This document shows, one piece after another, positions 23,189 to 59,013 of a stretch of 64,000 nucleotides of DNA. The notes below the pieces were generated by a model. That model searched no databases. It was not told the DNA's origin and worked only from the letters and a program-made list of their open reading frames with translations. The stretch is from Botryllus schlosseri (lineage: Eukaryota), in the NCBI GenBank assembly GCA_051294905.1, contig CM119371.1, forward strand, positions 17,610,001-17,674,000, given 5' to 3'. Made by a program: the position numbers and the translations under genes. Every line of letters starts with the position of its first letter. Position 1 is the stretch's first letter.

Positions 23189-24447
23189 GGTGTACCAGAT
23201 CCGAATTACAATGAGCTATCACAAAGGCAGGTTTATGGGTCAGTACAGGTTGACGCACAGGTTAATGAGCAGTATGGTACGATGTTACCTCAAAGGTGAT
23301 ACTGTACAACGCTTGATTGTGATGTCATAAGCAAATATTTCTCCTATTCATTTAGCAGTCGGCAATAGACCAATGGTTCCGTTTGGTGTTGGAAAGTATG
23401 CAGTTAACAAACATGTGTCCAGCTATAGTCATTTGTCTTTTAGTGATTTTTGAGGAAACCGCTGCGATAGCTCAGACTTCTCGAATCAGTACTTCCTACC
23501 CGACGTTAATAAATACCCCAATGCACATAAATGAAATGACGTAGCCAGCCAGGGTCGAAACAGCTTCCATGTTGAAATCGAAACCCTTTTGTTTTAAAAT
23601 GCCGATTTTATGTCCAATATTTCGCCATACATTTGCAATTTAGTATTTTGTTATTAGTGATGCCAATTAGCGACAATTGACTGTGTATAGCGGCATACGA
23701 TCTGAGGTGACTGACATCTCTTCCAGCCCATTTGCTACTATCGACTTTGTGTGGTGTGAGGCAGGCCTGATACGCAGTAGGCTGGCGCGCCTGCTATCAT
23801 CGCTGATCTGAATTACCACTTCTGCAGCAGTAGCTTTACCTACTCTCTGCCCAATACTGTTACATTTAGGTTGATTATCGTCCGTAATGTCATGCTGTTT
23901 TGGGGCTGACACGAAATAAATTCCAATTTGCGTGGCGGGCGGCCTAACTGGCTGCGAATAGACTCTGTGACCAAATACTATTTTGTTCAAATCCAATTTT
24001 TTTTGACGGCAATAACTCCGCTTCTACTGGTTGGAATTGAACCAAATTTGAAGAACATCATTTTTATAGACAACCTAATACTTTCATGGGGTGAACAGAA
24101 AAATTTCACATTTTTCGTAATTTATTTTTATATAATAAATAGAAAATTTCTTCTCCCGTAGCCATGCGGCTACTGGTTGGAATTGAACCAAATTTGGTGT
24201 GTAGGCTTAAGTTAGGTAACCAAACAATTTTATCAAGTAGCCAGTACGATTTGAGGAAAAAAGTCATTTTTGAAGACCCCTAATGAACAGGGGTGTACGA
24301 GTTTTGAGCAAACGTTAAAAGGGTGTACCACGTCGAAAAGGGTTGAAGAGCACTGCTCTAGACTACACAATAAAAATGATTGCTGGTTTGTTCGTGTTGA
24401 AGGTTACAAAGAAAAATGTATATGTCGATCTAAATTTAGTTTACACC

Positions 24448-25770
24448 AGTAGTATAGTAGATCGCTCGCATGCGGCCATGGGGTTCTTATGGGCCCGCTC
24501 GCATATCGCCGCGAAACTCGTGTTGGCATATCGCGCTTTTAGACCCCCCTTCCGCTGGCACATCGCCATTGGTTCTTATGGGTGCGCTCGCATGTCGCAC
24601 TTTCGGGTATGGGCATCTCTCGCACATCGCATGGAAAACTCGTGGTGGCACATCGCACTTTTAGGTATAGGCATCTCTCGCACATCGCATGGAAAACTCG
24701 TGGTCGCATTCGCCATGTGTTCTTATGGGTGCGTCGGCATATCGCACTTTCGGGTATAGACATCTCTCGCACATCGCATGGAAAACTCATGGTGGCACAT
24801 CCCCTTTTCGGGTATAGGCTGCGGTGATGATGTGCCTGTCATGTATTCTTACGGGATCTCTGGTGATTCCCCATGTGTTCTTATGGGTGCGGTCGTGATT
24901 CGCCTTTTCGGGTATAGGCTGCGGCGGTGAGGTGCCTGAAAACCCGGGGTGGTGACTCGCCTTTTTTGCTATAGGCGGTGGTGGTGATTCGCCTGTCGTG
25001 AGGCGATCGCTCGCATGACGCCATTGTGGCTTATGGGCGGGGTGGCGAGCTAACGAGAAACCGGGGGTGGCGAACTAACGTTTTCGTCTTATGGCGGGGG
25101 TGGCGAACTAACGTTTTCGTCTTATGGCGGGGGTGGCGAGCTAACGAGAAACCGGGGGTGGCGAACTAACGTTTTCGTCTTATGGCGGGGGTGGCGAGCT
25201 AACGAGAAACCGGGGGTGGCGAACTAACGTTTTCGTCTTATGGCGGGGGTGGCGAACTAACGTTTTCGTCTTATGGCGGGGGTGGCGAACTAACGTTTTC
25301 GTCTTATGGCGGGGGTGGCGAGCTAACGAGAAACCGGGGGTGGCGAACTAACGTTTTCGTCTTATGGCGGGGGTGGCGAGCTAACGAGAAACCGGGGGTG
25401 GCGAACTAACGTTTTCGTCTTATGGCGGGGGTGGCGAGCGGCTATTGATGCTAACACGAAACCCGGGGTGGCGAGCGGCACTTATTTCTTATGGCGACGG
25501 CTCTTATTTCTTATGGCGGGGGTCGCAAGCGGCTCTTATGTCTTATGGCGGGGGTGGCGAGCGGCTATTGCGTCTTATGGGTGCGGTCGCATGCGGCTAT
25601 TGTGTCTTATGGGTGCGGCCGTGAATCGCCCTTTCGGTATAGGCATCTCTCGCACGTCGTACTTTCGCATGTCGTGCTTTCGCGTATAGGTTGTGTTGGT
25701 GATTCGCCATGTGTTCTTATGGGTGTGGCGGTGATTCGTACTTTCAGGCATCTCTCGCGCGGTGTTGAAT
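24448..25770. repeat. GC-rich subterminal repeat zone of the left arm (58-bp repeats at 24590-24810; 33-bp/25-bp array at 25041-25437)
   Basis: Units GAACTAACGTTTTCGTCTTATGGCGGGGGTGGC (33 bp, 8 copies) and GAGCTAACGAGAAACCGGGGGTGGC (25 bp, 5 copies). Confidence 0.9.
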
Positions 25771-28184
25771 AGCCACCAACAATAACCGCACAAACGGAAA
25801 CGTGGCTTGTTGTGCAAAGGATTTACGCAGTGCGTGCGACCTATATTTCGAATGACCTGCGCGCTGAATTGTTTCCCATGCAGCTGTGTGCTACTATCGA
25901 TTATTACACTAATCCAGTCAGTGCGAAATAGTTTGCTAAATCTAGGAATCACTTCCAAGGTAATATTTTGGTAATTAGTTTACCACAGAGCCGTCGCAGA
26001 CGGTGATTCGAAAACCAACAATTTGGCACTTGCACGCGATCGCTATATGTTTTGACACTTCGAACAGTGGCTGACTTTAGTTGTATGATAAGAATCATGA
26101 AAATATTCAAGCAATGTGTCAATTTATCAACTTGAAATGAAACTTACTACACAACTCAAGTTGATTCTTATCTGAATGTATTAATTCGACACAACTCTAA
26201 TTCTTTTGAGAAATCCTAATAACGCGATCTGTTGAATCGAACGTAACCTGAATATTACTGACGCCGACTTTCATCCACATCGAATTATTCGCACATTCCG
26301 CGTCGCTGTTTCACGTCTATAGAATCAATACCAACTAGCTCAATGAGAGTCAGGAATCACAAGTATACACATACAATTATTGTATTTAACACTGAGAAAT
26401 CAAACGCTTAACAAAAACACGCAACTAATCATTTACCAACTCTAGCATTACCAAAAAAATTCAGGCATTGTTGATTGAAAATCCTTGAATCCTTATTATC
26501 AAAAAATGTTATAGTGCGGTGTCGGAGTCCATTCGCGGGATGCACTAAAGGTAAATCCAAATAATCCAGAATGAAATATTTGGACTTTGACATTGCGTGA
26601 ATTGAAATATGTTTGACAAACATGACTACCAACTTTCACCCAGTCACATTTCGAGATTATACGCCCATTGATTTGAAACAAGTAATGAAACATTACAACT
26701 CTATTCACGACCTGTCTTTACGTTTGTCAAAGAGAGTTTCAGTAATTACTATCGCGATATTTTAATGTGTTACTACACACAATAGAATCAATCAATGAAA
26801 TATCCCCCATTGCTGTAAACATTTCCAACTTGACAACCGCTTGCACATAACACGATCGAGTTGCAATGCGATTAGTTGAATCGGAATATTTCAACCTACT
26901 CTGTCATATCGCGATTTGAAGTAGGATTGCCAGACAGGCTGGGTAAACTTTCACTCTACTGCGTTTCAGATTAATTTATTCACACGATCACCATCTCGCT
27001 GTTTTCACACTTACACAATCGCGTGCTGTTCCCACTCCCAACTTCGGTACGATATTTCAACTTGCCACAATAACTGATTATTCACATGTTGATTTGAAAC
27101 AAAAGAAGCCTTGAACAAGTTATCTGGGTATTTTTTTGTCACAATTGAGTATAATGGAAATAGTATTACACCTCGAAATTTTAACATCTTACCATACTCA
27201 AAAGAGTCAATCATGAAAACCTTGTCAAGTAAATCCGTTTGTAACTCGGCCAACCAACTAGACAGTACCCATACAGAAAGAAGACAAGATTACGCGAGTA
27301 CATACAATCGCTACAATCTAAAATCCATAGCAAGTTCGGTTGTAGTCATATACCGCCAAATCGTCTTTTTTGTTCAACTGTAAAAGTCGTTACTATTCTG
27401 TAAGATAAAGTAATTACTACTCGGTATATTTTATAAACCAAAGTAAATACTACTCGGTGCGTACAACTTGGGATTAACATATGTTTTGAGTATATGATAT
27501 TTGAATGTCTGACCGATGTAGTTAAGAATTCTTACGATCGAACGGTGTTACATTGAAAGTTATCATGTTGTAAACATTCTTACTAACACGTTGGTTTGAC
27601 ATACGAGATTTTGTAATAGTCGATCACGACTTGATTAATAAATTATGACGTAATTAGACCGGGGTTGTGGTAAATGTTATGATAGCAACAAACTTTTCAG
27701 AAACATTGTTATTAACATATCGATTTGTAAAACTAGATTAACATATCTGAAATGCTTTGATTGGGAAGATTAAGCCGTGTTCGTAAAAACCACGCAGCGT
27801 ATTATTGATATCAGGAAATATTTTACAAATGTAATTGTCTCCAGTAACCAAGACTAAAGATGAAACAACAATTTCCTTTGTTGAACAATAACCGGTACAA
27901 TACTTTATCATCGTAATCTGCGGTGAGAATTGAAACACTTTCACACATTACCCGGTATCAAGATATCACACTAGGTGAATTGACATACCGCCGCTTAATT
28001 AATGCTTAATCCGTTCGCACCATTTCACATACTTTGGTCATCACAAAAGTAAGTTGGGATATGTTTGCTAGATGCATTCAATTCAGTTAGAAATGTCTGG
28101 TGCGCAACAATCGTAATATCAAGGAAGTACTTGCTACGCTGTAATTCAATTAACGTGTTTTGCATTGTTGTTCATTTGTAGTAT

Positions 28185-30898
28185 CAGTGGCGGCTCGTGA
28201 CAATATCGGGTGGTGGGGCAAGGGGTGCGAGTGACTTTTATCAACATGACGTCACAATGGCGTTTTCCAATGTAAAACAGTAACTTTATGGTCACATGAA
28301 TTTCCCAACAACAGTGATTTTAACGTAGGTGCCGCGAGAGGTTTGCCGGTGAGCCGTGACTTGAAGTGTGGTAAAAAATGTTTTATTCATTTTTTTTAAA
28401 TCAAAGGATTATTTTACAAAATGTACGTGAACTAAGAATCGTCACTGTGCCACGAATCAATTATCAGGCCATCCTTAGTAGCATGCGTTATGATTTCATG
28501 GTAGAGTTAGAGATTTTGCAAATCGATAGGCCCTAATTTTTCTAAGCCCGTACGAGAGTGTTTCGTACACGATATATTAGCACCCACGTCTTGTGAGTCG
28601 TTGGAGCAATAGGGATTAGGCTAGTCGATGCAACTGTTCTTTTGTGTTTCAGTTTGATCATTTATTACGGTATTTAACCTATGAATAAATGCAAAGTTGC
28701 ACAGATCCTGGTGTGTTACGACCACTGAGCTGGTGGTTACGACCAGGTGATAGGCAACCAAAGCGGAGGCACCCGGCGTACGATTGGATCAATGGACTGG
28801 ACAACTTAGACCTCTAATTTTCGCTCAAAAGGCAACTGCGTAAAATACGTACGGAGCAAAGATTCAATACGATTCATATTCGCACTTGACTAATTCCAAT
28901 GACTAGAACTCGACAGATTGAGTAAGCCTAACTGGAAAGGTCAACGAGTTCGGACACATACGCAATTGTTATCTCATAGATTGGGCCTGTCATATTGAAT
29001 CCAGATCAGGGCCGGCCAACCCGTGGCCCGCGGGCCAAATGTGGCCCGCGAGAAGGTTTTGAGTGGCCCGCGAGGTAATTTCCGAAATTTCTAATATCAT
29101 CAAAAATGGATTGCACAGATTGTGAACTTGCAAGGGCAACCAAAAATTTGATTAGTCTGGCCGCAACACTTGAGATGTGATGACTAAAATATCAGTTTCG
29201 ACTCATTGACAGATCCATCAACCATCCATATATTGGTATATCTTCGTACACTACAATAAAGCAGAATAATTTGCGATAGATTTATCAAAGGTAAAAATTT
29301 TCTACAAGCTTAGCGCAATATGTTGTCACTCGATTTCTTGTTCTTAATATTGTTACCCTTTTGTGAAAATTGAAGAACACCCACTGTATCAGATTGAGTC
29401 TAACTATATATTAGCGATTACGAGACAAAGTGTCGTTCAACATATGCAACCTTGCGTTGGCACTGGCAGTAAGACCGTCGACTATGAAACCTAGGCACGA
29501 TGATTGACGCATGTTGGTCGCAGCTTTCGATATCGATATGTCCATGCGCCGAATAGCCCAGTCCTCGCAAACTTAGCCCAGCGATATACAGCAGGCCCGC
29601 AATATAATCAAGTGACAATGTTATTGGCCTATGAACTTCAAAACAAATTCGCGCTTCGCGCGGATAGTGGCCGGCGCAAAAGTTCGTCAATCGAATGTGG
29701 CCCTTTGGCTGAAAAGGTTGGCCAGCCCTGATCCAGATGATCAATTTGAATGGTCTTTGAAGAACTAAGGACAGCAGCCTCGGAACTTCGGTCTCGGAAC
29801 AACATAGGAAATTTTGGCCTTGAAATTGGAGACTGTGACACAACACATACGGCTTACTGTCTATAAGTCTGCTGCGAAATCGTCGTTGGAAAATATATTA
29901 TTCAATAAATACATGAATGAAAGCCGCAAACTTAGTATACTGTTACAAGAAATCATCAAGAAGTAGCATAGGCCTACGCAGTCTCATACATAACCCATTC
30001 CGGCATGGTACACTGTCAAAATCTATACAAACATACGAACGCCGAACGGCTTTTGCGTAAATCTGCTAGCGATAAATGAAGAGTCAGCTCTCACTCGACT
30101 TCGGAAACGAAATTACCACCAACATAGTTCAGTGACAAACTTAAAACTTGTTTGTTACAGCGGTCGATACTACCATTAAGACTTAGTGTGCCAAACTGCC
30201 AAATGTCATGACCGATCTCGGTATGCAACATCGTCAAAATCAATGGAGACCAAATACCGGCTTTTGAGTAAAATCTGTTTGCTGTACAATGTACAATTGT
30301 ACATGATAGATCAGCACACACTATACTTCGGAAACGAAATTAGTACCCTTATCTTTAAGTATAGCAAGCCTGAAACTTGGAGCAGTGTTAAATACAACCT
30401 TCACGACATATCATACCAAGTTTCAAGAATTATCATGGTGCGAAACACCGTCAAAATCGACCTATACCAGCAAAGGTCGACTCAACGCATGTTACGGTAA
30501 CCGAGTTCAGATATAGATGCGATTGTTACATCACACCTTAAGGGCAACTAGGCATATTCGCCCCGGCTGCTCGGCCATTTTACGAATAGGAGAGAGTAAA
30601 TCACCGTTTCTTTATTGTGCGCGGCTTTGAGAGAATAGATAGTGAAAGCTTGTTATGAGCGCTACCGGGGCAAGCCCCGGCTAGGCATTCACAAAGCGAA
30701 AACACAGAAGAGAATTCGATTTTCGCAGATACTTCGCTATGTATGGGCATTTGCAAGCGAAAGCACAAGAAGAACGCGGGTTTCGCTGTGATCTCGGTAT
30801 ATATTGAGCGCTGTGCGTCTATAAATGGTTCAATTGTTATTGAACAGAATTTTAGGTGGGGCAATGCCCCAGTTGCCCTATAGGACGAGCCGCCACTG
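28185..30898. mobile_element. Non-autonomous hAT element (2.7 kb) inserted in the left arm
   Basis: Perfect 14-bp TIR CAGTGGCGGCTCGT; perfect 8-bp TSD TGTAGTAT; empty site seen in the right arm at about 44545-44556. Confidence 0.95.
29007..29730 (+). mobile_element. hAT MITE family F, copy 2 (nested)
   Basis: TIR CAGGGC(C/T)GGCCAACC; perfect 8-bp TSD ATCCAGAT. Confidence 0.9.
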
Positions 30899-33177
30899 TG
30901 TAGTATTGATTGTTTTTGAACCCCCAAATAATAATAATTCCCGACATGAAACCAAACCGCTGAAAGTCGTTACCATCACAACGAAACAATTTGTACGATG
31001 TTTACCAAATGTATCCTATAGTTAGGTGTACTAGAATTATTTGTCTAACACATACACCGACAATGCAATCGAAAATTTTTCCGTTGTCATTCGCTAAAGT
31101 AAATGTCATCACAATACTCTGTCACTAAAAGACGGTACTTGCATGTGATTGAATCCCTACCAACTCACTAAACCGAACTCCAAAGAAATTTTACTCACTC
31201 GACGGATATGAAACAGCGTCGCTTAATCGGTCTATATCGTTTTTCTAAAGGTAAATCATATCCATCCAATAGAAAACAATTTTCACTAGCTTGGTAATGA
31301 AACCGAAGTCTTCATTCGATATTTTTTTTGTGTCAAATACTTTGCAATAAACACATTTGAGTGGTTGAGCTTCACATCATCAAGCTGTCATTTGTAAATC
31401 AAGATTTCGGTAAACTTGTAAATGTATCGTTTAACTAACCGAGTTGTATGCACAGTTTGATATTTTTGTCATTTAGTGATTGTTGAACATACCACTTCGA
31501 AATACTGCATTGATCTTAATTTCCATCATCATGATAATCGAAGTACATTTATTTCAAATTCGTAACAACCGGCTTTTCTATGACATGATAAATTTTTGAC
31601 AAGTTATGCTTAGAAGATTGGTTGCATATCGCGAAAAATAATATACCACTCATATTGATGCTGTTACTCCATTGATCGATATTTTCAAACGAGTAAAATT
31701 TATTACTTGAGTTTCTCCGCTTAATGTAAATGAAAACTCAGCCGTCTTTTAACAACAAACAATGATAAAAAAGTAGGCAATCAAACACAACACTTTGTAC
31801 GACACTAATTATTGTTCCACACATCTCATTTCATACTAAGTTTATACGAAAGATATTCATGACACATGAAAATATTCGCTCATGCTACGAACATACGCAA
31901 TGATTGGTGGTGCTTTCAAACTGTTTCGATATCACAAGAACTTTATTGTCTGAATGGGTGTTCATGTATCTTAATAATCAAATAGTTCAACACAGAACTA
32001 GTACTAACAGAAACATCAGAGAGTTGTTTACACAAAAGTTTGTATGTGTACAGTATGTGAATACCATGTGTAAGTCCAGCACAATTGCAGTATCCATCCG
32101 AGTTTAGTCAACACAAATTTATTACAACGGAGCCACGTAAACTTTCGTGAAAGAAAAGCATACTCACTTCCAGAGGGTTATGTCAACACCATAGCAGTAA
32201 ATCAGCTACTCCAACAACAAAGTACATATGTTTCTAGCCACGGTCCTTACATCTTTCACATAGATCAATCTACTTTGCTAACGAAAAGTGCTGAGTCATC
32301 ACATGATCGCTCTCACAACAAAACAGCTAGTAGATATTATCATACAAAAATATTCCTAACCCTTTACACACCAGTGACAAATCATACAACGAATATGCTT
32401 TGCGGGTCGAATTGTTGTTCAGTGTCAAGTCTACCTGTTGAAACGTACATTAAAACAACACAGTCACAATTCAATTAAAACCACGAATCTATTTTCATTT
32501 CGTCACATACAGAAAAATAAATTTTCTTTCTCCAACACATACTTGTAACCAATCGCTTTCATTAAACACACAACTTCCTAAAAGTATTTACTTTCTACAA
32601 CATAGACATTCCGATGTAGTCAAGAAATATTTTTATTAATCAAAATCATCGATTTCTGTTCACGGCGTTAGTGTGTGCATGTCATACCTGTGGACCCCGT
32701 ATTAAAATGGACACGGCACGACTGAATGTAAGGGGGTAGAAGTCTATCGCATCGATTTACATGCGGTCTTCGCTACGGTTTCAAAAAAACGAATCATCTA
32801 TTTTGCATTGGTCGAGACCGAGCGAACCAGTTACATGTATTCGCGGTAATGATTTTGCTTGTCATATGCGAATGATAGGATTGCTACTCCGACAAATCAA
32901 CATACAACAATCTTCTGACGATCATAATGGCAATTTCATTTTCCGCCCATTCATAATTGTATACACACGAAAAGTATATTGTACAACTCGGTAACTACAT
33001 TTAACAAGACCAATCACACAACCAGCGTTCAACACAAGATACCTACCCAAGTAAAAATATCATTCTGGTTTGGACAACTGACGTTTACCTGTGTAAAATT
33101 ATCATTTTCACTTGGGGGTCCACCGTTACCTAACTAAAATACCATTGTCCTTTGAAGATTTATCGTTTACCCAATGT

Positions 33178-33570
33178 AACAAACCCCTTTTCACTTGGAA
33201 ATCTATTTTTGCCCTGGATAACAAACCCCTTTTCACTTGGAAATCTATTTTTGCCCTGGATAACACACCTTTTTCACTTGGAAATATACTTTTTCTCTGG
33301 GTAACAAACCTTTTTCACTTGGAAATATATTTTTTCCCAGAGTAAGAAACCTTTTTCACTTGGAAATCTATTTTTTCCCTGGCTAACAAACCTTTTTCAC
33401 TTGGAAATATATTTTTCCCCAGAGTAAGAAACCTTTTTCACTTGGAAATCTATTTATTCCCTGGGTAACAAACCTTTTTCACTTGGAAATATATTTTTTC
33501 CCAGAGTAAGAAACCTTTTCCACTTGGAAACCTATTTTTTCCCTGGGCAACAAACCTTTTTCGCTTGGTG
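33178..33570 (+). repeat. Minisatellite, about 40-42-bp unit, about 10 copies, left arm
   Basis: Repeated AAACCTTTTTCACTTGGAAAT(A/C)TATTTTT(T)CCC(T/A)G. Confidence 0.9.
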
Positions 33571-34433
33571 ATCCGTCGTTTACCTGAGTAAAAATATCAT
33601 TGTCCTTTGGGGATCTGGCGTTTACCCAGTGTAACAATACATTTTCTCTTGGTCATCTAGCTTTTCTTAGAGTAACAAAACCATTTTCATTTTGAAATCT
33701 GACAAACACACCTGACAATTTGTTGTATTGACGATAGTTTGAAATAGATTACAACGAACAGTGACGGAAATATACACGGACTACCGGTTTCAGAGTATAC
33801 CTCCATCAGTCGTATCACATCAATATCATCGGTTAACCACATACAATATGCTCTTGTACACAGAAATGCATGTTTTGGAAAATTGGACAATAGGCTTCGA
33901 TAGTTCTGTGATGTCCGGGTTCGTGCTTTGGATTTTCCAGAGTCAAAATGTCTGAATAAAACACCTCCTCGACGATGGTTGGTATGTGGATAACGGTGTT
34001 CGGAAAACGGTTGGATTTATGTCACCCATCGCGATAACAATTCCTGATCGAGTTTTCTCCCACATGTTTACTATATTGTGTCTTTATTGGTCAATGTATG
34101 TCTCGACATTCAGTTTGAAATCGGAAATGATAAAGTATGTAACCGGATCCGGATATCAACTCTGAATCGATAAACCAATGAACAATATTCAAAGTAAACA
34201 TGTTACACCCTGTGTTTCCACGAAAAAATACCATCCAGACATACGTCGCGCTTGTTTGCCCACACCAGTATACGCGCAAATGGAGGTGTGAGACATTGCA
34301 TGCAATGTGTTGGTATACAAACATCGATCCACAGACATTATCATAACCGGTAATTTTGATGCAGATCGAATGTCATCAAGCACACCCGATAACAATGTCA
34401 TACCAATAAGCCACATTGCAATGACTCTGAGTC

Positions 34434-35366
34434 CGCGCTATTACATCGATATTTCGACACCGTTCACTGATTTACTCGATGGTTTTATCGCGTTGTAACA
34501 TCACAAGATAGTCATGACCCTATCTCCAGACAGATCACCCAGACCAATTGGATACATCGGGCAATATCCAGCGTGATGTCGACACCGAAGTTCTCTGTTG
34601 TACAGCGTTTGACCAAGGTGAACTATCGAAGTACGGTGCTCGAAATGATTGCGATCAGTCTTTCAGTCACGATGCAAGGATGTCGCTATTCCCACATAAC
34701 GACTCCAGATAAATATCGTGAACAGTGATTCTGAAAATCTCTGACTGATACTGTCATCTAATAAGGTGTGTTTCTGTGGAATCAAGACTGTAATCGTACA
34801 CCACAATAGAACACTACCTCGCGATTTCACACACAATCATAAAACACATCATCGTAAGGGTCCAGTTCGTCCGGCAACATTTCGAAACGGTCATCGCCAC
34901 AAGAGATCGAGGTTGCGCTCGTCGTATCGGTGGCATTTTGACACTGTCATCACCACAAGGCTATTGACGTCGTTTCGGTTGGTCATGTCAATCCGTTTTA
35001 CAATTTACCGTTTTTCAACTCCACGCACCATAGTGTTACGACACAGACAAGAAGCGTCGGTGGAAATGATAAAACACGGAAGGCACACTTTGGTGTTATT
35101 TGATATGGATTTTACACCAGACGAACCTCACATTCGAGCGATGCATTTGAATGGTGATTGTATTATTGATGTCCAAGGAAAAGAAATGTATCGATTTATC
35201 GGTTTCGTACATATCCAACAAAAACCTGGGTATATGATTGTGCATGGTTCGCATATTCGACTGTGAACGCCCAATTGGTATATGTTGTACAGTTCACTTT
35301 CACCGTCGTGCGAATAACCCATGTTACGGCTCCATGTTTGTGTGTCTGTATGTCATGCTTCAGATT
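34434..35366. other. Unique 933-bp spacer (loop) at the palindrome centre, containing a 166-aa ORF (34766-35266, +) of unknown status
   Basis: Inverted symmetry stops at ATGACTCTGAGTC (34433) and resumes at GACTCAGAGTCAT (35367). Confidence 0.85.
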
Positions 35367-36221
35367 GACTCAGAGTCATTGCAATGTGACTTATTGGTAT
35401 GACATTTTTATCGGGTGACATTCGATCTACATCAAAACTACCGGCTATGATAATGTCTGTGGATCGATGTTTGTATACCAACACATTGCATGCAATGTCA
35501 CACACCTCCATTTACGCGTATACTGATACGGGCAAACAAGCGCGACGTATGTCTGGATAGTATTTTTTCGTGGAAACACAGGGTGTACCATGTTTACTTT
35601 GAATATTGTTCATTGGTTTATCGATTCAGAGTTGATATCCGGATCCGGTTACATACTTTATCATTTCCGATTTCAAACTGAATGTCGAGACATGCATTGA
35701 CCAATAAAGACACAATATAGTAAACATGTGGGAGAAAACTCGATCAGGATTTGTTATCGCGATGGGTGACATAAATCCAACCGTTTTCCGAACACCGTTA
35801 TCCACATACCAACCATCGTCGAGGAGGTGTTTTATTCAGACATTTTGACTCTGGAAAATCCAAAGCACGAACCCGGACATCACAGAACTATCGAAGCCTA
35901 TTGTCCAATTTTCCAAAACATGCATTTCTGTGTACAAGAGCATATTGTATGTGGTTAACCGATGATATTGATGTGATACGACTGATGGAGGTATACTCTG
36001 AAACCGGTAGTCCGTGTATATTTCCGTCACTGTTCGTTGTAATCTATTTCAAACTATCGTCAATACAACAAATTGTCAGGTGTGTTTGTCAGATTTCAAA
36101 ATGAAAATGGTTTTGTTACTCTAGGAAAAGCTAGATGACCAAGAGAAAATGTATTGTTACACTGGGTAAACGCCAGATCCCCAAAGGACAATGATATTTT
36201 TACTCAGGTAAACGACGGATC

Positions 36222-36615
36222 ACCAAGCGAAAAAGGTTTGTTACCCAGGGAAAAAATAGGTTTCCAAGTGGAAAAGGTTTCTTACTCTGGGAAAAAATAT
36301 ATTTCCAAGTGAAAAAGGTTTGTTACCCAGGGAAAAAATAGATTTCCAAGTGAAAAAGGTTTCTTACTCTGGGAAAAAATATATTTCCAAGTGAAAAAGG
36401 TTTGTTACCCAGGGAAAAAATAGATTTCCAAGTGAAAAAGGTTTCTTACTCTGGGAAAAAATATATTTCCAAGTGAAAAAGGTTTGTTACCCAGAGAAAA
36501 AGTATATTTCCAAGTGAAAAAGGTGTGTTATCCAGGGCAAAAATAGATTTCCAAGTGAAAAGGGGTTTGTTATCCAGGGCAAAAATAGATTTCCAAGTGA
36601 AAAGGGGTTTGTTAC
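36222..36615 (-). repeat. Mirror copy of the 40-42-bp minisatellite, right arm
   Basis: Repeated TTTCCAAGTGAAAAAGGTTT, the reverse complement of 33178-33570. Confidence 0.9.
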
Positions 36616-37054
36616 ATTGGGTAAACGATAAATCTTCAAAGGACAATGGTATTTTAGTTAGGTAACGGTGGATCCCCAAGTGAAAATGATAATTTTACAC
36701 AGGTAAACGTCAGTTGTCCAAACCAGAATGATATTTTTACTTGGGTAGGTATCTTGTGTTGAACGCTGGTTGTGTGATTGGTCTTGTTAAATGTAGTTAC
36801 CGAGTTGTACAATATACTTTTCGTGTGTATACAATTATGAATGGGCTGAAAATGAAATTGCCATTATGATCGTCAGAAGATTGTTGTATGTTGATTTGTC
36901 GGAGTAGCAATCCTATCATTCGCATATGACAAGCAAAATCATTACCGCGAATACATGTAACTGGTTCGCTCGGTCTCGACCAATGCAAAATAGATGATTC
37001 GTTTTTTTGAAACCGTAGCGAAGACCGCATGTAAATCGATGCGATAGACTTCTA

Positions 37055-40000
37055 CACTCTAAATTTAGAAGTGTTGCTCAACCCGGAAAATTGAACACGA
37101 TTTGTGATCCAAAATTGAACACTTAGAAGTGTTGCGAAGTGTTTAAATTTAAAGTGTTTACCTAAACAAGTGTTCAGTCTCAAAGTGGCTGGTTGACCTG
37201 TCACCGGAACGCAGGGCTCAAAATGAAATCGGATTTTATTGCTGCATTAATAAATGACACTTATAACACCCAACCTGGGCGAATATTGAATAAATACGTG
37301 CAAACAATCAAATTTCCAATAGCTGCTGTGACAGGGTTTTATAAATTCAAATCAGCAATTGAAACCGTTTCCGGAATAGTTCATGAAATCACCAACATCA
37401 CAAATGATTCAGAGCAAACTCACTACAAATATCATGCAACTCACTCAATCATGGGAATGAAAACGATGCACTGGGATAGTTATAACAAAATATCATTTAG
37501 TGTCTTAACTTTTCGTGACAGGGGCATGGAATCAAATTCATTGGTTACGTCCATTAGCAGAAAATAAGATCAACGCAAATCATTACAACTTATGGAAAAC
37601 GTATCAAATTATGGTTTGTAAATTGCAAAGTTTATTATTAACAAACAAAACAAATGTATCAGTACCACTACCACAACCAAGAAAACTAACCACAAGTATT
37701 TCTTCATTCTTAATGAAATTGGGCCCGCTAACCAGGCAACAAAAATATTCTAGTGCTTGCATTACAAGTATTTATATCAGGGTAATGCCAATCACTTTTA
37801 GTTTAAACAACATGAATGGTTTCTTCGATTCAATACAAATTTTGCAGATTTATAGAAAAGATTTTTGTTGTCCTTTACCACAGTGTGCTGCAAAAGAAAA
37901 TGAAATCTGGAAGTCATTACGGCAGTGGTTTCCAAAATGTCAACAATCTTTCTGAATGCTCCATCTTCGCCGAAGCATTTTTATATTCTTGCGATCAGCT
38001 GCAACCAAGGCTTGATGAATCTTTGCTTCGAGGCGTGCCATGGCGGCTCCGTCTTTTTACTGGTCGACTCCGAGTGGTGCTCCTTGAAAATATGAAATAC
38101 CAAAGTTTTGAATATGCCAAGGAAAATTCTAATTTTTAATCAGAAATAAATAAAAATATTTCAGATAGGTAGGTTACAGAAGCACGGGAAAGGCGCTCGG
38201 CTACATGTGAAATCCTATCACTGAGTTAGAGTAAGACTAAAATTAGCAAAACGACTAATAAAAATATCTTTAATCAGGTCTGTATTTTTTCTATTCGGCC
38301 ATTTTAACATTTACATTAACATGGCAGGCATTACCAGGCAACAATGAAAATGCTAAAATGTTACTTTGAATGAAATTCATAGCAAAACGTTGCAGGTCTT
38401 TCTAAACTTGTATGGCCCATAAAACAGAAAGATTACCTGATTCAATGATAAGACATACCCTCGGAACTTGAACATATATTCGTTTGTTACTCCATTTGGC
38501 TTGAAGAAGAAGACAGTTGACTGACTTCATCAACCTCATTTTGCTGAAAATAAAATTGATTGCAAACAAGATCAGACAATAAATATGACAAAATAATTTG
38601 TACTGATGGGGTTAGAATTGCTGTTTCTATGGGTTCAGATTTCCATTATGATAATTGACATACGATTTACATATAAATTTTAATCTAAGATCATATAGCT
38701 GCTTTGAATTTAGACGAGAAATATATCAGACAAAGGACACTTCGATCGTCTTTAGTGCAAAAACTTTGTTACATCTTATCGTAGGTGTTGAGAACTTTTC
38801 CTTCATTGCAGGAATTGTAACTGTTGTCAATCATTTAAAAATCCTTCATTCCTGATTAAATTTAATTAATGCAAATTGGAAATTCTCCTAATTTGATGTT
38901 CACCTAGTGCGTTATAGTTCAGTAAGACATACTTCAAATACAAGTTACACGAGCTCATTACGTTCAACTACATCTCTGTTCAATGTATACAGATGAAGCC
39001 TTTTTCAGCTCATATCGGCTCTACTAGATAGTTTGTGAGAAAAGTTGGACTGCAAAAAACCAGCACAAATGGTGATATATAAAATTAATAAATAGGCTTA
39101 CATATTCATACGTTTCCATGGGTTCGTGAGACAAACGCATGTATCGCATAAGATTACTTCACCGGGCAAAAATCCGTTACGAGTGAGTCCTCACGTCACC
39201 GTCAACATTGTCAGATAGCGCAGGCACAGTAGAAAAAGAGGGCTCTTTTCAAGAAGTTGACATCAGTTGGACGAATTTGAGGACCAATCCAAGACTAATG
39301 AATAGAAAATATTTTTTTCAAAAATTTGCAATAAAAGTGAACTAACTATTCAGTATTAACGCAGATATCAGACTAGATACAATTGTGCGTGACAGAAGTG
39401 TGTCTTTCATAGAATAATTAAATAATGGAATGGAAAGTTGCACGTAACGCTACCACCAATTTTACTCTGGCACAGGTAGCATACTTCCTGGATTATTAAT
39501 CATTTTAGTGAATTTTATCCGCAAACATTCAGGAAAATCTTTATCACGAAGGTAAATTCATTATCTAAGGATATACCAGTTTACTTACGAAACACTGCGA
39601 TGCTTACCAGTATTTCAAACACCAAATGCATTTCAAAAAGGTGCCAATTGCCATACATACTACCTGCACTTTACGGCATTTTTCATATTCTTTCCATCAG
39701 CAGCAACGCAGGCTTGACGAGTCCCTGATTCGTGGCGTGCGATGGCGGCTCCATCTTTTTACTGGTCAAATCCAAATGCTTCTCCTAGAAAATACGATAA
39801 ATACCAAAGGAAAATTGTAAATTTTATGCAGAAGTAAATATAAATATTTCACACAGGTAGGTTACAGAAGCGCAGGAGAGGTGATCAGCCCCCCCAGGTT
39901 GAGAACCACTGACCTAGCCCATTATAGTTCAGTAAGCAATAGTTGAAGTACACGTTACACGAGCTCATTACGTTCAACTACATCTCTGTACAGTGTACAC

Positions 40001-42715
40001 AGATGAAGCCTTTTTCAGCTCATATCGAATAGTCCGTAAGCTACTCTGCGAGATAGTTCGTGAGAAAAGTAGGACTGCAAAAACCACCAAATTACATAAT
40101 CAATGGAGATATATAAAATGAATAAATAGGCTTACATAATCAACAGTATCCATGGGTTCTTGAGACAAAGGTCTGTATCGCATAAGATGACTGTGCCGGC
40201 ACAAAACCCGTTACGAACGACTCCTCGCGTCACTGTCAACATTGTCTGATACCGCAGGCACGGTAGACCCAGGGGGCTCTTTTCAAGGAGTCGACATCAG
40301 TTGGACGAATTTGAGGATCAATCCAAGACTATTGAAAAGAAAATATTTGTTTCAAAAATTCGCAATACAAATGAACTACCGTACTCAGTAATCACACAGA
40401 TATCATACTGGATACAGTTGTTGTTTTCTGCAATAAGTTGTGCGTGACAAAAGGGTGTCTTTCATAGAATAATTAAGTAATGGAATGGAAAGTTGCACAT
40501 GACGTTACCACCAATTTTACTCTGGCACAGGTAGTATACTTCCTGGATTGTTAACAATTTTAGTGAAATTTTATCAGCAAACATTCATATAAATCTTTAT
40601 CACGAAGATAACCGAATGCAACAGAATCAACTTCATTATCTAAGGATATACCAGTTCACTTACAAAACACCGTGATGCTTACCAGTATTCCATACAGCAA
40701 ATGCATTTCAAAAAGGTGCCAATTTCAATACATACTAGCTGCAAAATAGAGTTTAGTTCAGTTACCGTATCATAATAAACTCAGGAAAGTCAAATTTGGG
40801 GATTGGGCAAAACAAATACTACCCCTTGTGATCCATGGTTTATTGAAAAGATTGTTTGTTTGGCTGTGCCATTATCAGGGCGATTTGTTGGACCTAAAAT
40901 AGGATGATTTCGACCGAATGACCCAAATTCACATATGTTTTGACAATAAAAACTTAATTTTGACCCCATGTACTTAAATTAGGTGTTTCTCACATAATGT
41001 TAGAATTGTACTACCGCGTCGGTACTTATCTTTATTTCTGGCGCTGGAGCTGTCTGTTATTCTGAGGTAGTTTGAACTGAAAAAAGATCTTTTGGCATGA
41101 ATACTGACAAATTTTCACATGAAAAAACCTTAGTTTATCGAAATCTCGACCCATGAAGAATTCCAGTATTAGTTACATCTCGTATCATGGTAAAAATAAT
41201 AAAAACTTTTTGTTGTACAACAAAAGATACTTTCCTACATTTTCGGCTAGAAAGTGTCTGTCTTTACTAAGTAGCTTTACAAGAATGGAGAAAGAACGTT
41301 CACCAGCAGCAGTTGTTGGCCAGCAACAATGAAGTTGTGCGTACACTACAGATGACACACCGTGTTGCTTCATTATGACAAGGTTGTCTACATCGTAATT
41401 TTTCATCATACGGTGTCTAATAGAAGAACCAATGCCCACGCATTCTTGCTTCAGTTAGGATTACTGCAGTAGGCTACGTTGAGCATTTGTTTCATTTCAC
41501 AGTTTATAATTCACAATGAGCAGACGATGGTCCGTCTACAACGGTAGGACTATAAAGTAGGCTACAAGATGTAATTTGTAAGATGATAAGTTCAGCGACA
41601 GTGCAATCAACTATGATACAAACGAAATGCAAGTTGCAAAAAAATTTTGACTTTTTAAACAGTTTTGGCAATATTTGACCTAACGGTACAATTTTGACAA
41701 AATTTTGACCTATTTTGACATGTCAAAAAAATCGCCTTAGTTAACACCTTACCACTTGGAATAAACAGTACAGTGTAAAATATGTTGCAGTTGAAAAACC
41801 ATCAAACCTTTGCATGACTGTCATACCGGTATTCAATTGCTGACATTGCAGTACTTGTCCACAATGCACCGTAATATCGCCTTCATAGGGATATTTCAGT
41901 GTGGATAGAGAGAACATTACTTTATCTATATATCAAAAAAGTTAGTTCGATAGCAGCTTCCCATCAGTACCGTAGTACTGGACCTGGTCGCAGCCTGGTA
42001 TATTATCAGATTCGAAGCTCGATCAACCAGCAATAAGATCAAACGAATCATATACTACAAAACATCCAAAGAACATTCATATGAATAAGGGATATCAGTA
42101 GCCTACTAAAACATCTAAAACAAACGACCTTACTGCAATGTCAAAACGAGCTCATTTTACGACTATTCTCACATTACATATAATCAATAACGTTTACCGC
42201 ATTTCCATACCTTACAGTATAGGGATGTTATGATCCTTTACGCCATCAGGTAGCAGAAACTGCTTCAATATATCCATTCCGCCAAGTCTTTTCGTGTATT
42301 CTACTCTCTGCCTGAAGCCTGACGAACCACCAATTCAAATTTCAAACTTAAATCGAGCGCGCTCTACCGTAACGAAGGTGGTGACCCCTCTGCGTCACAG
42401 GGAAATATATTTTATTGAAATAATACCCTCAAACTTAGTGGTTTGGTCAATTGAATAATATTATTTTACATATACCATAATTTTATGTGAAGCCCAAACG
42501 CACCGATAGTTTATGAATGCGAAATTGATGATAAATTACCAAGCATAAATTTTATTGAAAGTAAGCCGCAGTCGCGAAGTGTTACATATAAACGGAGAAA
42601 TACGCAGAAGCGTTGCGACGATAATGGCCCAATGCGTTTACATGCCCAAAAATTGTGCCTGTACGCAGAATAAAGTGTTATGAAGTGTTCAATACGACCT
42701 CGCGGATTTAGAGTG
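37055..42715. mobile_element. CMC/EnSpm-like DNA transposon derivative (5.66 kb) inserted in the right arm
   Basis: TIR CACTCTAAAT...ATTTAGAGTG; 2-bp TA duplication; the left arm shows the empty site (GGGGGTAGAAGTC at about 32732-32744); AAGTGTT/AACAC subterminal repeats. Confidence 0.75.
41185..41345 (-). pseudogene. hAT transposase C-terminal dimerisation-motif remnant
   Basis: PTTAAGERSFSILVKLLSKDRHFLAENVGKYL matches the hAT P-x-T-x-x-x-ERSFS motif; lies in a CAGGGCGATT...AATCGCCTTA-bounded segment (about 40876-41739). Confidence 0.65.
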
Positions 42716-45700
42716 TACCCCCTTACATTCAGTCGTGCCGTGTCCATTTTAATACGGGGTCCACAGGTATGACATGCACACACTAACGCCGTGAACAGAA
42801 ATCGATGATTTTGATTAATAAAAATATTTCTTGACTACATCGGAATGTCTATGTTGTAGAAAGTAAATACTTTTAGGAAGTTGTGTGTTTAATGAAAGCG
42901 ATTGGTTACAAGTATGTGTTGGAGAAAGAAAATTTATTTTTCTGTATGTGACGAAATGAAAATAGATTCGTGGTTTTAATTGAATTGTGACTGTGTTGTT
43001 TTAATGTACGTTTCAACAGGTAGACTTGACACTGAACAACAATTCGACCCGCAAAGCATATTCGTTGTATGATTTGTCACTGGTGTGTAAAGGGTTAGGA
43101 ATATTTTTGTATGATAATATCTACTAGCTGTTTTGTTGTGAGAGCGATCATGTGATGACTCAGCACTTTTCGTTAGCAAAGTAGATTGATCTATGTGAAA
43201 GATGTAAGGACCGTGGCTAGAAACATATGTACTTTGTTGTTGGAGTAGCTGATTTACTGCTATGGTGTTGACATAACCCTCTGGAAGTGAGTATGCTTTT
43301 CTTTCACGAAAGTTTACGTGGCTCCGTTGTAATAAATTTGTGTTGACTAAACTCGGATGGATACTGCAATTGTGCTGGACTTACACATGGTATTCACATA
43401 CTGTACACATACAAACTTTTGTGTAAACAACTCTCTGATGTTTCTGTTAGTACTAGTTCTGTGTTGAACTATTTGATTATTAAGATACATGAACACCCAT
43501 TCAGACAATAAAGTTCTTGTGATATCGAAACAGTTTGAAAGCACCACCAATCATTGCGTATGTTCGTAGCATGAGCGAATATTTTCATGTGTCATGAATA
43601 TCTTTCGTATAAACTTAGTATGAAATGAGATGTGTGGAACAATAATTAGTGTCGTACAAAGTGTTGTGTTTGATTGCCTACTTTTTTATCATTGTTTGTT
43701 GTTAAAAGACGGCTGAGTTTTCATTTACATTAAGCGGAGAAACTCAAGTAATAAATTTTACTCGTTTGAAAATATCGATCAATGGAGTAACAGCATCAAT
43801 ATGAGTGGTATATTATTTTTCGCGATATGCAACCAATCTTCTAAGCATAACTTGTCAAAAATTTATCATGTCATAGAAAAGCCGGTTGTTACGAATTTGA
43901 AATAAATGTACTTCGATTATCATGATGATGGAAATTAAGATCAATGCAGTATTTCGAAGTGGTATGTTCAACAATCACTAAATGACAAAAATATCAAACT
44001 GTGCATACAACTCGGTTAGTTAAACGATACATTTACAAGTTTACCGAAATCTTGATTTACAAATGACAGCTTGATGATGTGAAGCTCAACCACTCAAATG
44101 TGTTTATTGCAAAGTATTTGACACAAAAAAATATCGAATGAAGACTTCGGTTTCATTACCAAGCTAGTGAAAATTGTTTTCTATTGGATGGATATGATTT
44201 ACCTTTAGAAAAACGATATAGACCGATTAAGCGACGCTGTTTCATATCCGTCGAGTGAGTAAAATTTCTTTGGAGTTCGGTTTAGTGAGTTGGTAGGGAT
44301 TCAATCACATGCAAGTACCGTCTTTTCGTGACAGAGTATTGTGATGACATTTACTTTAGCGAATGACAACGGAAAAATTTTCGATTGCATTGTCGGTGTA
44401 TGTGTTAGACAAATAATTCTAGTACACCTAACTATAGGATACATTTGGTAAACATCGTACAAATTGTTTCGTTGTGATGGTAACGACTTTCAGCGGTTTG
44501 GTTTCATGTCGGGAATTATTATTATTTGGGGGTTCAAAAACAGTCAATACTACAAATGAACAACAATGCAAAACACGTTAATTGAATTACAGCGTAGCAA
44601 GTACTTCCTTGATATTACGATTGTTGCGCACCAGACATTTCTAACTGAATTGAATGCATCTAGCAAACATATCCCAACTTACTTTTGTGATGACCAAAGT
44701 ATGTGAAATGGTGCGAACGGATTAAGCATTAATCAAGCGGCGGTATGTCAATTCACCTAGTGTGATATCTTGATACCGGGTAATGTGTGAAAGTGTTTCA
44801 ATTCTCACCGCAGATTACGATGATAAAGTATTGTACCGGTTATTGTTCAACAAAGGAAATTGTTGTTTCATCTTTAGTCTTGGTTACTGGAGACAATTAC
44901 ATTTGTAAAATATTTCCTGATATCAATAATACGCTGCGTGGTTTTTACGAACACGGCTTAATCTTCCCAATCAAAGCATTTCAGATATGTTAATCTAGTT
45001 TTACAAATCGATATGTTAATAACAATGTTTCTGAAAAGTTTGTTGCTATCATAACATTTACCACAACCTCGGTCTAATTACGTCATAATTTATTAATCAA
45101 GTCGTGATCGACTATTACAAAATCTCGTATGTCAAACCAACGTGTTAATAAGCATGTTTACAACATGATAACTTTCAATGTAACACCAGTGTTCGATCGT
45201 AAGAATTCTTAACTACATCGGTCAGACATTCAAATATCATATACTCAAAACATATGTTAATCCCAAGTTGTGCGCACCGAGTAGTATTTACTTTGGTTTA
45301 TAAAATATACCGAGTAGTAATTACTTTATCTTACAGAATAGTAACGACTTTTACAGTTGAACAAAAAGACGATTTGGCGGTATATGACTACAACCGAACT
45401 TGCTATGGATTTTAGATTGTAGCGATTGTATGTACTCGCGTAATCTTGTCTTCTTTCTGTATGGGTACTGTCTAGTTGGTTGGCCGAGTTACAAACGGAT
45501 TTACTTGACAAGGTTTTCATGATTGACTCTTTTGAGTATGGTAAGATGTTAAAATTTCGAGGTGTAATACTATTTCCATTAACTCAATTGTGACAAAAAA
45601 AATACCCAGATAACTTGTTCAAGGCTTCTTTTGTTTCAAATCAACATGTGAATAATCAGTTATTGTGGCAAGTTGAAATATCGTACCGAAGTTGGGAGTG

Positions 45701-46964
45701 GGAACAGCACGCGATTGTGTAAGTGTGAAGACAGCGAGATGGTGATCGTGTGAAAAAATTAATCTGAAACGCAGTAGAGTGAAAGTTTACCCAGCCTGTC
45801 TGGCAATCCTACTTCAAATCGCGATATGGCAGAGTAGGTTGAAATATTCCGATTCAACTAATCGCATTGCAACTCGATCGTGTTATGTGCAAGCGGTTGT
45901 CAAGTTGGAAATGTTTACAGCAATGGGGGATATTTCATTGATTGATTCTATTGTGTGTAGTAACACATTAAAATATCGCGATAGTAATTACTGAAACTCT
46001 CTTTGACAAACGTAAAGACAGGTCGTGAATAGAGTTGTAATGTTTCATTACTTGTTTCAAATCAATGTGCGTATAATCTCGAAATGTGACTGGGTGAAAG
46101 TTGGTAGTCATGTTTGTCAAACATATTTCAATTCACGCAATGTCAAAGTCCAAATATTTCATTCTGGATTATTTGGATTTACCTTTAGTGCATCCCGCGA
46201 ATTGGACTCCGACACCGCACTATAACATTTTTTGATAATAAGGATTCAAGGATTTTCAATCAACAATGCCTGAATTTTTTTGGTAATGCTAGAGTTGGTA
46301 AATGATTAGTTGCGTGTTTTTGTTAAGCGTTTGATTTCTCAGTGTTAAATACAATTATTGTATGTGTATACTTGTGATTCCTGACTCTCATTGAGCTAGT
46401 TGGTATTGATTCTATAGACGTGAAACAGCGACGCGGAATGTGCGAATAATTCGATGTGGATGAAAGTCGGCGTCAGTAATATTCAGGTTACGTTCGATTC
46501 AACAGATCGCGCTATTAGGATTTCTCAAAAGAATTAGAGTTGTGTCGAATTAATACATTCAGATAAGAATCAACTTGAGTTGTGTAGTAAGTTTCATTTC
46601 AAGTTGATAAATTGACACATTGCTTGAATATTTTCATGATTCTTATCATACAACTAAAGTCAGCCACTGTTCGAAGTGTCAAAACATATAGCGATCGCGT
46701 GCAAGTGCCAAATTGTTGGTTTTCGAATCGCCGTCTGCGACGGCTCTGTGGTAAACTAATTACCAAAATATTACCTTGGAAGTGATTCCTAGATTTAGCA
46801 AACTATTTCGCACTGACTGGATTAGTGTAATAATCGATAGTAGCACACAGCTGCATGGGAAACAATTCAGCGCGCAGGTCATTCGAAATATAGGTCGCAC
46901 GCACTGCGTAAATCCTTTGCACAACAAGCCACGTTTCCGTTTGTGCGGTTATTGTTGGTGGCTC

Positions 46965-48137
46965 TTCAACACCGCGCGAGAGATGCCTGAAAGTACGAAT
47001 CACCGCCACACCCATAAGAACACATGGCGAATCACCAACACAACCTATACGCGAAAGCACGACATGCGAAAGTACGACGTGCGAGAGATGCCTATACCGA
47101 AAGGGCGATTCACGGCCGCACCCATAAGACACAATAGCCGCATGCGACCGCACCCATAAGATGCAATAGCCGCTCGCCACCCCCGCCATAAGACATAAGA
47201 GCCGCTTGCGACCCCCGCCATAAGAAATAAGAGCCGTCGCCATAAGAAATAAGTGCCGCTCGCCACCCCGGGTTTCGTGTTAGCATCAATAGCCGCTCGC
47301 CACCCCCGCCATAAGACAAAAACGTTAGTTCGCCACCCCCGCCATAAGACGAAAACGTTAGTTCGCCACCCCCGGTTTCTCGTTAGCTCGCCACCCCCGC
47401 CATAAGACGAAAACGTTAGTTCGCCACCCCCGGTTTCTCGTTAGCTCGCCACCCCCGCCATAAGACGAAAACGTTAGTTCGCCACCCCCGCCATAAGACG
47501 AAAACGTTAGTTCGCCACCCCCGGTTTCTCGTTAGCTCGCCACCCCGCCCATAAGCCACAATGGCGTCATGCGAGCGATCGCCTCACGACAGGCGAATCA
47601 CCACCACCGCCTATAGCAAAAAAGGCGAGTCACCACCCCGGGTTTTCAGGCACCCCACCGCCGCAGCCTATACCCGAAAAGGCGAATCACGACCGCACCC
47701 ATAAGAACACATGGGGAATCACCAGAGATCCCGTAAGAATACATGACAGGCACATCATCACCGCAGCCTATACCCGAAAAGGGGATGTGCCACCACGAGT
47801 TTTCCATGCGATGTGCGAGAGATGTCTATACCCGAAAGTGCGATATGCCGACGCACCCATAAGAACACATGGCGAATGCGACCACGAGTTTTCCATGCGA
47901 TGTTCGAGAGATGCCTATACCTAAAAGTGCGATGTGCCACCACGAGTTTTCCATGCGATGTGCGAGAGATGCCCATACCCGAAAGTGCGACATGCGAGCG
48001 CACCCATAAGAACCAATGGCGATGTGCCAGCGGAAGGGGTGTCTAAAAGCGCGATATGCCAACACGAGTTTCGCGGCGATATGCGAGCGGGCCCATAAGA
48101 ACCCCATGGCCGCATGCGAGCGATCTACTATACTACT
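46965..48137. repeat. GC-rich subterminal repeat zone of the right arm (array 47297-47545)
   Basis: Reverse complement of 24448-25770 but with 5x33-bp and 3x25-bp units. Confidence 0.9.
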
Positions 48138-58768: not shown

Positions 58769-59013
58769 CGTTTTGGGTACACGGCTGATTGCGCAGGATT
58801 ATTATAAAAATGAAAAATGCCTGTACACAAAGCTTGGCTCGTTTTGCACGGTACATTCCTTCTGTACCATGTTCAGGAAAACGAGAAATTAGATAGAACT
58901 AAAATGATAGCTTAGGAACATTTCATAGGTAAAATTCGAAAAAGATTTCAAGAATTTCGCTCTAAATTACTCTAATCATGCAACTAGAATTATCTAGTTC
59001 GTCAGAGTCTCAC

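Follow-up and report, generated by a model that had tools for sequence, protein, structure and literature searches.

What is the giant palindrome that occupies positions 24448 to 48137 of a 64,000-nucleotide stretch of the Botryllus schlosseri genome (the window), and what could have kept its two arms so alike? The element turned out to be real, and it is best read as a non-autonomous Polinton that behaves like a satellite. It begins with AGTAGTATAGTAGATC and ends with GATCTACTATACTACT, the reverse complement of the start, and its termini are of the form (AGT)2...(ACT)2 (AGTAGT at 24448, ACTACT at 48137). An earlier interpretation made from the letters alone (the sequence-only reading) had described these ends with a perfect TACACC duplication, a single TACACC near 22740 in an intact copy of the target repeat, two later insertions, a length of about 15.3 kb once these are subtracted, inverted arms of roughly 7.2 and 7.1 kb, and a 933-bp unique part. 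All of this was borne out, the ends and the duplication at the same coordinates. The element splits its target repeat into 24355-24447 and 48138-48332. Taken whole, the arms differ at 42 of 7,114 paired bases (0.59%) and by a few small indels, forming a terminal inverted repeat (TIR) of 7.1 kb, and the window contains no N.

The sequence-only reading had anticipated sibling copies with different 6-bp duplications, and these were found. The terminal 313 bp, used as a query with 40 of 1,787 candidate loci scored, matched 20 other loci; 17 of the 19 examined on both sides had multi-kb inverted arms, and the remaining 2 had TIRs of only 714 and 637 bp together with Polinton genes. A loop query (40 of 1,072 candidates scored) gave at least 39 further full or near-full matches at 89 to 95% identity, and all eight loop-found loci examined had multi-kb arms, making 25 of 27 overall. 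Seventeen of these 25 siblings, those with both ends in hand and no gap, were measured end to end; the other eight had an end missing or unlocated or a central scaffold gap. Every measured sibling was flanked by a 6-bp duplication (perfect in 16), with a length of 12,414 to 15,816 bp, a loop of mostly 0.9 to 1.0 kb, and paired arms of 3.9 to 7.7 kb. Duplications were also seen in four of the eight others (two perfect, two with one mismatch). Copies with the loop gene number at least 300 in the genome (two disjoint sets of 150 scored loci), and the element is one of several hundred family copies. At about 13.5 kb each, 300 copies would make up at least 4 Mb of the 495-Mb genome, a family that gene-based Polinton surveys would overlook. 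Hairpins doubled around a 100-N gap were seen at C6:19119724-19141597, C2:28391982-28413504, and C10:21033776-21060588; they are likely mis-assemblies that inflate copy counts.

Gene-bearing Polintons with the termini of the element, also predicted beforehand, proved to be abundant. A 367-residue polymerase piece had 111 matches in the genome, more than 50 of them in open frames of 1,000 or more codons. These helpers are 15.4 to 16.5 kb long, with TIRs mostly of 0.65 to 0.8 kb, and examples carry an integrase with a chromodomain (Pfam E 4e-16 and 1e-8), a polymerase B2 (E 8e-8), and a weakly matching A32-like ATPase (E 0.008). Other frames we take, from gene order and known motifs, to be the protease and the capsid proteins, both major and minor; Pfam backed these labels weakly (double jelly-roll, E 0.01, in a 34%-identical relative). 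A search of the genome with the Pfam profile PF03175 gave no match, a false negative, since both the polymerase-piece search and the Pfam B2 match found helpers. When a tree was built from the first 260 bp, helper and satellite termini were intermingled, and a starred branch united one helper with one satellite. The duplications of both kinds have a pyrimidine at position 3 (19 of 19 for satellites, 6 of 7 for helpers) and mostly a purine at position 4 (17 of 19 and 7 of 7). The shared ends, the 6-bp duplications, and the resident helpers bear out the earlier assignment to a non-autonomous Polinton derivative. Two helper copies, C2:20634793-20650377 and C2:20718146-20733730, lie 83 kb apart with an identical left flank and represent either a segmental duplication or an uncollapsed haplotype. 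At C13:18335848-18360442 (L071-L073), a 16.3-kb helper with its own 6-bp duplication sits inside an 8-kb satellite-type element.

Where the arm sequence comes from was then considered. Of the 8,205 bases of arm plus loop, 1,634 match the five canonical helpers, all of them within 24448-26505 (the outer 2.06 kb). For 26351-26505, which is present in both arms, the matching helper sequence lies immediately inward of the TIR, at the protease end and not at the other, so that both satellite ends derive from the helper protease end. This stretch corresponds to the final ~39 codons of the protease-like gene (tblastn E 0.014 in the element; E 8e-13 at 71% identity in sibling L049). A tblastn search with 33 pieces of helper protein revealed no consistent remnant past this protease tail, the other matches being weak, scattered, and copy specific; helper proteins detected in the element no gene for a protein-primed family B polymerase, integrase, ATPase, major or minor capsid protein, or whole protease. 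A weak ATPase-like match near the loop of L049 (E 0.002 to 0.011), considered as a decayed Polinton half, was rejected, as it occurred in only 1 of 17 copies and a reversed-sequence control matched at E 0.06 to 0.1. The sequence-only reading had proposed a copy-back of a terminal half; the part about a single helper end stands, but the arm does not represent half of a helper, since its match to helpers stops after the outer ~2 kb and the search further inward gave no decayed Polinton genes.

The same reading had reported no long open reading frame. The longest ATG frame in the arms and loop indeed has 146 codons, but a short conserved gene in the loop had been overlooked. Its frame is 91 to 93 codons long in siblings. 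Loop-gene searches returned about 1,200 first-pass candidates each, of which 150 were scored: all 150 matched the gene at 87% identity or more, and for a 58%-identical variant a disjoint set of 150 loci all matched at 92% or more, 149 of them stop free. Among five variants, the ratio of nonsynonymous to synonymous substitution rates (dN/dS) was 0.19 to 0.36 in all 10 pairs (p ≤ 4e-4), with 2.17 for a control frame, and over 20 copies there were 3 stops in the loop-gene frame versus 31 to 88 in the five other frames. Judged by these codon comparisons, the gene is under purifying selection. A 50-codon arm frame common to 11 of 22 copies is not a gene: it is frameshifted elsewhere, including in this copy, and its ratio of nonsynonymous to synonymous polymorphism (pN/pS) is 2.17.

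A fold model built from 30 loop-protein sequences reached a predicted local distance difference test score (pLDDT) of 81 and has eight beta strands; a first model had reached 44, and the fold searches used the better one. The nearest predicted folds were small heat-shock and CS domains (Foldseek best E 0.046; VIA best Z 4.8, root mean square deviation 3.9, 68 aligned), and no structural match reached E ≤ 0.001 or Z ≥ 5. The Pfam CS domain matched 3 of the 30 members, at best with E 0.008. No relative was found in Pfam, in the sequences of solved structures, in viral contigs, in longer proteins, or in the six frames of 24 helper stretches. The six database relatives lie on contigs of 0.7 to 4 kb, and at least three of them match variants in this genome; they therefore support no wider host range. 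The sole metagenome match, antisense in a bacterial response-regulator gene, was rejected, and a proposed mimicry of S1/eIF2alpha, prompted by a motif, was unsupported by the structure match lists.

The arms were compared within and between copies. Within a copy they differ by 0.03 to 1.04% (median, 0.16%; 17 siblings). Between copies the best identity ranges from 84 to 98% per 400-bp bin and the nearest sibling switches along the arm; in one sibling, both arms contain a stretch of helper protease, about 100 codons long and 93% identical. Because symmetric arms are found within mosaic copies, recombination among copies and helpers appears to have been followed by symmetrization shortly before insertion. 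Most of the 42 arm mismatches of this copy are private to one arm, and 14 of the 42 fall in the innermost 393 bp (p 2.5e-8). In the siblings, 73 mismatches in 8,500 bases near the loop compare with 189 in 94,750 elsewhere in the arms. The arms are likely re-copied at each replication round.

A second hairpin family was also found, with elements of 11 to 17.5 kb, different termini after AGTAGT, and loop-gene variants 44 to 65% identical. Its elements are often near-perfect palindromes with a 30- to 45-bp loop, each arm carrying a copy of the gene in one orientation or the other. What the two families have in common is limited to the gene and about 500 bp downstream of it; in the element, this second shared stretch is 35487-36021, with a conserved AATAAA at 35703. 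A stranded single-cell RNA pile (depth 15 to 39, three runs) covers 35794-36047, with a mirror in the left arm, and is directed away from the loop. It falls within the stretch conserved between both families; many of its reads fit partially, and they can be attributed neither to the loop gene nor to this copy. Some second-family hairpins carry a Bcl-2 family gene in their arms (L185:3686-4207, Pfam E 4.5e-22; L181:5303-5824; L198:6722-7243).

Two loci represent a third Polinton type, in which a loop-gene variant has a Bcl-2 gene on one side (Pfam E 8e-22) and a BIR/IAP gene on the other (E 3e-17). This type has capsid, integrase, ATPase, and protease-like genes but of the polymerase only the last ~70 codons; the order after the core is Bcl-2, the small gene, BIR/IAP, and a 180-codon frame. 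No TIR pair was present within the range examined. In addition, the polymerase half of a helper is joined to a satellite arm in two hybrids, which measure about 14 kb and are each flanked by a separate 6-bp duplication.

Taken together, these results make it probable that the element belongs to a long-lived, helper-dependent satellite of Polintons that has kept the helper ends and one small conserved gene. The protein-primed polymerase of the helper would likely copy the satellite and the helper integrase would likely insert it, as the shared ends and the common site preference suggest. Outside the chromosome, a single strand would fold into a 6- to 7-kb stem with a 0.9-kb loop (a "racket" intermediate), and template switching or stem repair would equalize the arms, least often beside the loop. 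After insertion, the arms would diverge and gain one-arm insertions. The size of 12 to 16 kb might be kept by packaging in helper capsids, the match in size being the ground for this, and the loop protein could have an accessory role, directed at the host cell or at the helper, with selection on its gene perhaps operating in the free phase. The steps resemble a Polinton cycle proposed in the accessible part of PMC4196379, where an extrachromosomal single strand folds into a racket and is copied by protein priming before integration.

Several observations weigh against this reading. The data gave no sign of free linear or hairpin DNA, of a particle, or of a transposition event. The satellites (12.4 to 15.8 kb) and the second family (11 to 17.5 kb) are mostly smaller than the helpers, and their lengths show a variation of a quarter, so that any packaging limit would be loose. 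One copy contributes 32 of the 73 inner mismatches in the siblings, and alignment ends may inflate the excess near the loop. The loop gene is broken in some siblings, it was unmatched at E 1e-4 in 5 of 10 second-family elements picked by terminus, and RNA depth over it was 0 to 4 on both strands in four runs, summed over all copies. Its link to Bcl-2 and IAP is one of neighborhood, in another type of element, and where the inner 5 kb of the arm came from is unexplained.

Three other explanations were weighed. The element could be an assembly or chimeric-read artefact, since palindromes trouble the assembler and three sibling or related loci do have a central 100-N scaffold gap around which they are doubled. 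This copy is free of N, though, and shows a perfect duplication with an empty-site control as well as arm-specific insertions and point changes, and 17 other copies carry duplications of their own. Short-read contigs from 20 runs of nine studies hold part of the loop region, two of them at least half of its words. The multi-kb arms and individual 6-bp duplications of the siblings make an artefact very unlikely, to the point that we give it almost no weight. A gene-less copy-back by-product, a duplicated helper terminal half comparable to a defective-interfering virus, is the interpretation of the sequence-only reading, and it agrees with the origin of both ends from the helper protease end, with a size near that of the helper, and with the near-perfect second-family hairpins, whose ~30- to 45-bp loop is what a snap-back would yield. 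It fits poorly with the 80% of arm plus loop unmatched in canonical helpers, with the lack in tblastn of a consistent helper-gene remnant past the protease tail, and with the common loop and selected gene of the siblings, from which we conclude that the copies descend from an established lineage and were not made afresh. The gene-less part of that interpretation fails on the selected gene and on the age of a lineage of several hundred copies, and we regard it as a highly improbable account of the present family, though a copy-back may have been the beginning of the lineage.

The remaining alternative is a fold-back transposon that moves by cut and paste with the helper integrase only and whose arms stay similar through chromosomal gene conversion, with neither a polymerase-driven free phase nor packaging. 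It asks for nothing beyond the ends and the 6-bp duplication, both of which are present; long inverted repeats do undergo gene conversion, and no free DNA was observed. Yet two large one-arm insertions and the 42 mismatches, most of them in one arm, were never evened out after insertion, and dispersed copies are symmetric although they are fine mosaics of each other and of helper ends. Selection on a gene across hundreds of copies is also easier to explain by a replicating pool. This alternative thus seems unlikely to us, less so than the copy-back by-product, and we prefer the helper-dependent satellite. A wider version, in which helper-sized hairpin satellites, recombinants with the polymerase half or the capsid half, and full helpers form a many-part virus system that has common ends, recombines in one replicating pool, and is co-packaged, with the hairpins as cargo carriers of host-control genes, is doubtful, if less so than either of these two; if it were true, the cargo supplied by the hairpins would be the small beta protein, Bcl-2, and IAP, the hairpins would count as genuine satellites of animal Polintons, and the giant stem would be direct fossil evidence of the panhandle intermediate.

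We then compared the element with known systems. According to the available part of PMC8097293, Polintons/Mavericks have (AGT)2...(ACT)2 ends, 6-bp duplications, and lengths of 12.7 to 24.6 kb, and the TIRs of intact vertebrate Mavericks measure 46 to 1,447 bp; a range of 100 to 1,500 bp for Polintons in general is given in the accessible text of bioRxiv 2023.08.22.554363. The element shares with them the end motif, the duplications, the size range, and, with the resident helpers, the terminal 2 kb, but its 7.1-kb TIR exceeds ~0.05 to 1.5 kb and the core genes are absent. Non-autonomous Polintons have been named in print, for example Polinton-1N1_DR of zebrafish (PMC9341505, as far as its available part goes). 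Like these, the element has a gene-bearing partner with matching termini in the genome and multiple independent insertions. Zebrafish N-families with multi-kb TIRs were reportedly described by Kapitonov and Jurka in 2006, and if so, the zebrafish non-autonomous Polintons may be a precedent for the giant-arm form. Butterfly polintons, in the accessible portion of bioRxiv 2025.02.07.637071, have ~2-kb gene-bearing TIRs and mobile derivatives without polB. The expanded TIRs that duplicate the protease/capsid end and the polymerase-less mobile derivatives resemble our elements, whereas, on the same portion of that source, butterfly polintons retain core genes, have 2-kb arms in place of 6- to 7-kb ones, and are not almost wholly palindromic.

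Copy-back or snap-back genomes of RNA viruses and satellite viruses offer another parallel (PMC6140465, available part): a panhandle or hairpin, both ends from one helper end, and dependence on a helper. Unlike RNA-virus copy-backs, the element is double-stranded DNA, integrated, heritable, present in several hundred copies, and mostly of non-helper sequence, with a selected gene of its own; nor does its sequence come wholly from one terminal part of a helper, as that of a copy-back genome does. The other traits of copy-backs and satellite viruses drawn on here are general background. By analogy, then, the element would resemble a satellite more than it does a defective-interfering particle, its own gene being unrelated to the helper core genes and kept by selection. 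Among the accessory genes of adintoviruses are homologues of Bcl2 and IAP as well as conserved unknown genes (PMC8502044, accessible part), and the position of the loop-gene variant between Bcl-2 and BIR genes in the third Polinton type is comparable; carriage of the loop protein on hairpin satellites is not mentioned in that part of the source. In the literature searched, outside which key sources and supplements lie, giant hairpin satellites of Polintons that carry a selected gene were not described, nor was a conserved gene in the loop, re-copying of the arms, or exchange with helpers reported for non-autonomous Polintons; this supports novelty weakly.

How Polintons replicate and whether they are packaged in animals are long-standing questions, so far argued from gene content. 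With its 6- to 7-kb arms, re-equalized in each copy amid free recombination between copies, the family offers a footprint of the proposed fold-back intermediate that can be counted. The loop gene, as a selected gene, shows that the satellites are not dead remains, and it supplies a small protein of no known family. With several hundred helper-sized copies, tests for free DNA and particles become practical.

Coordinates of the element, its parts, and related elements (positions in the window unless a contig is given)
Feature	Position	Strand	Remark
Uninterrupted copy of the short target repeat	22653-22930		TACACC once, near 22740
Left target-site duplication, TACACC	24442-24447		6 bp; perfect pair with the right copy
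Polinton-type terminus	24448-25935	+	AGTAGT at the end, with tandem repeats rich in GC; homologous to the 0.7- to 0.8-kb helper TIR
Left arm, outer part	24448-28184	+	Pairs with 48137-44547 over 3,586 bases, 19 of them mismatched; 149-bp repeat-number difference
Remnant of helper protease-end unique sequence	26351-26505	-	Mirror at ~46229-46342; blastn 71-73% to helpers
Insertion A, left arm only	28185-30898		14-bp TIR, 8-bp duplication; later event; presumably hAT-like
Left arm, inner part	30899-34433	+	41-bp tandem array at 33176-33568; 30899-32738 pairs with 44554-42716 (2 mismatches in 1,839 bases), 32736-34433 with ~37054-35367 (21 in 1,689)
Unique loop	34434-35366		933 bp; 89-95% identity among siblings
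Loop gene	34985-35266	+	Intact, 93 codons; predicted all-beta protein of no known family; under purifying selection
Right arm, inner part	35367-37054	-	41-bp array at 36223-36615
Insertion B, right arm only	37055-42715		CAC...GTG ends, 10-bp TIR, TA duplication; later event; presumably EnSpm/CACTA-like
Right arm, outer part	42716-48137	-	Terminates in ACTACT
Right target-site duplication, TACACC	48138-48143		6 bp
Second-family hairpins	C1:36856814-36872027 (G000); C4:12912927-12927825; C15:1292693-1308637; C7:16798180-16815692		Loci L148-L167, L168-L187
Third Polinton type	C9, ~10203000-10214558; C1, from 15400348		L202-L203; L204-L205
Helper-satellite hybrids	C15:3043945-3057957; C11, from 16027956		L057-L058; L089-L090

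Other features of the window lie outside the element. Another repeat flanks it as inverted copies at 23188-24107 and 56400-57511 (89% identical), and a high-copy short repeat (3,581 candidates) occupies 24150-24360. A perfect two-copy tandem with a 443-bp unit is found at 10663-11542. On the minus strand, 59010-59924 holds an open frame of 304 codons that belongs to a CD36-family gene (Pfam E 3e-79) and is unusually long for a single exon.

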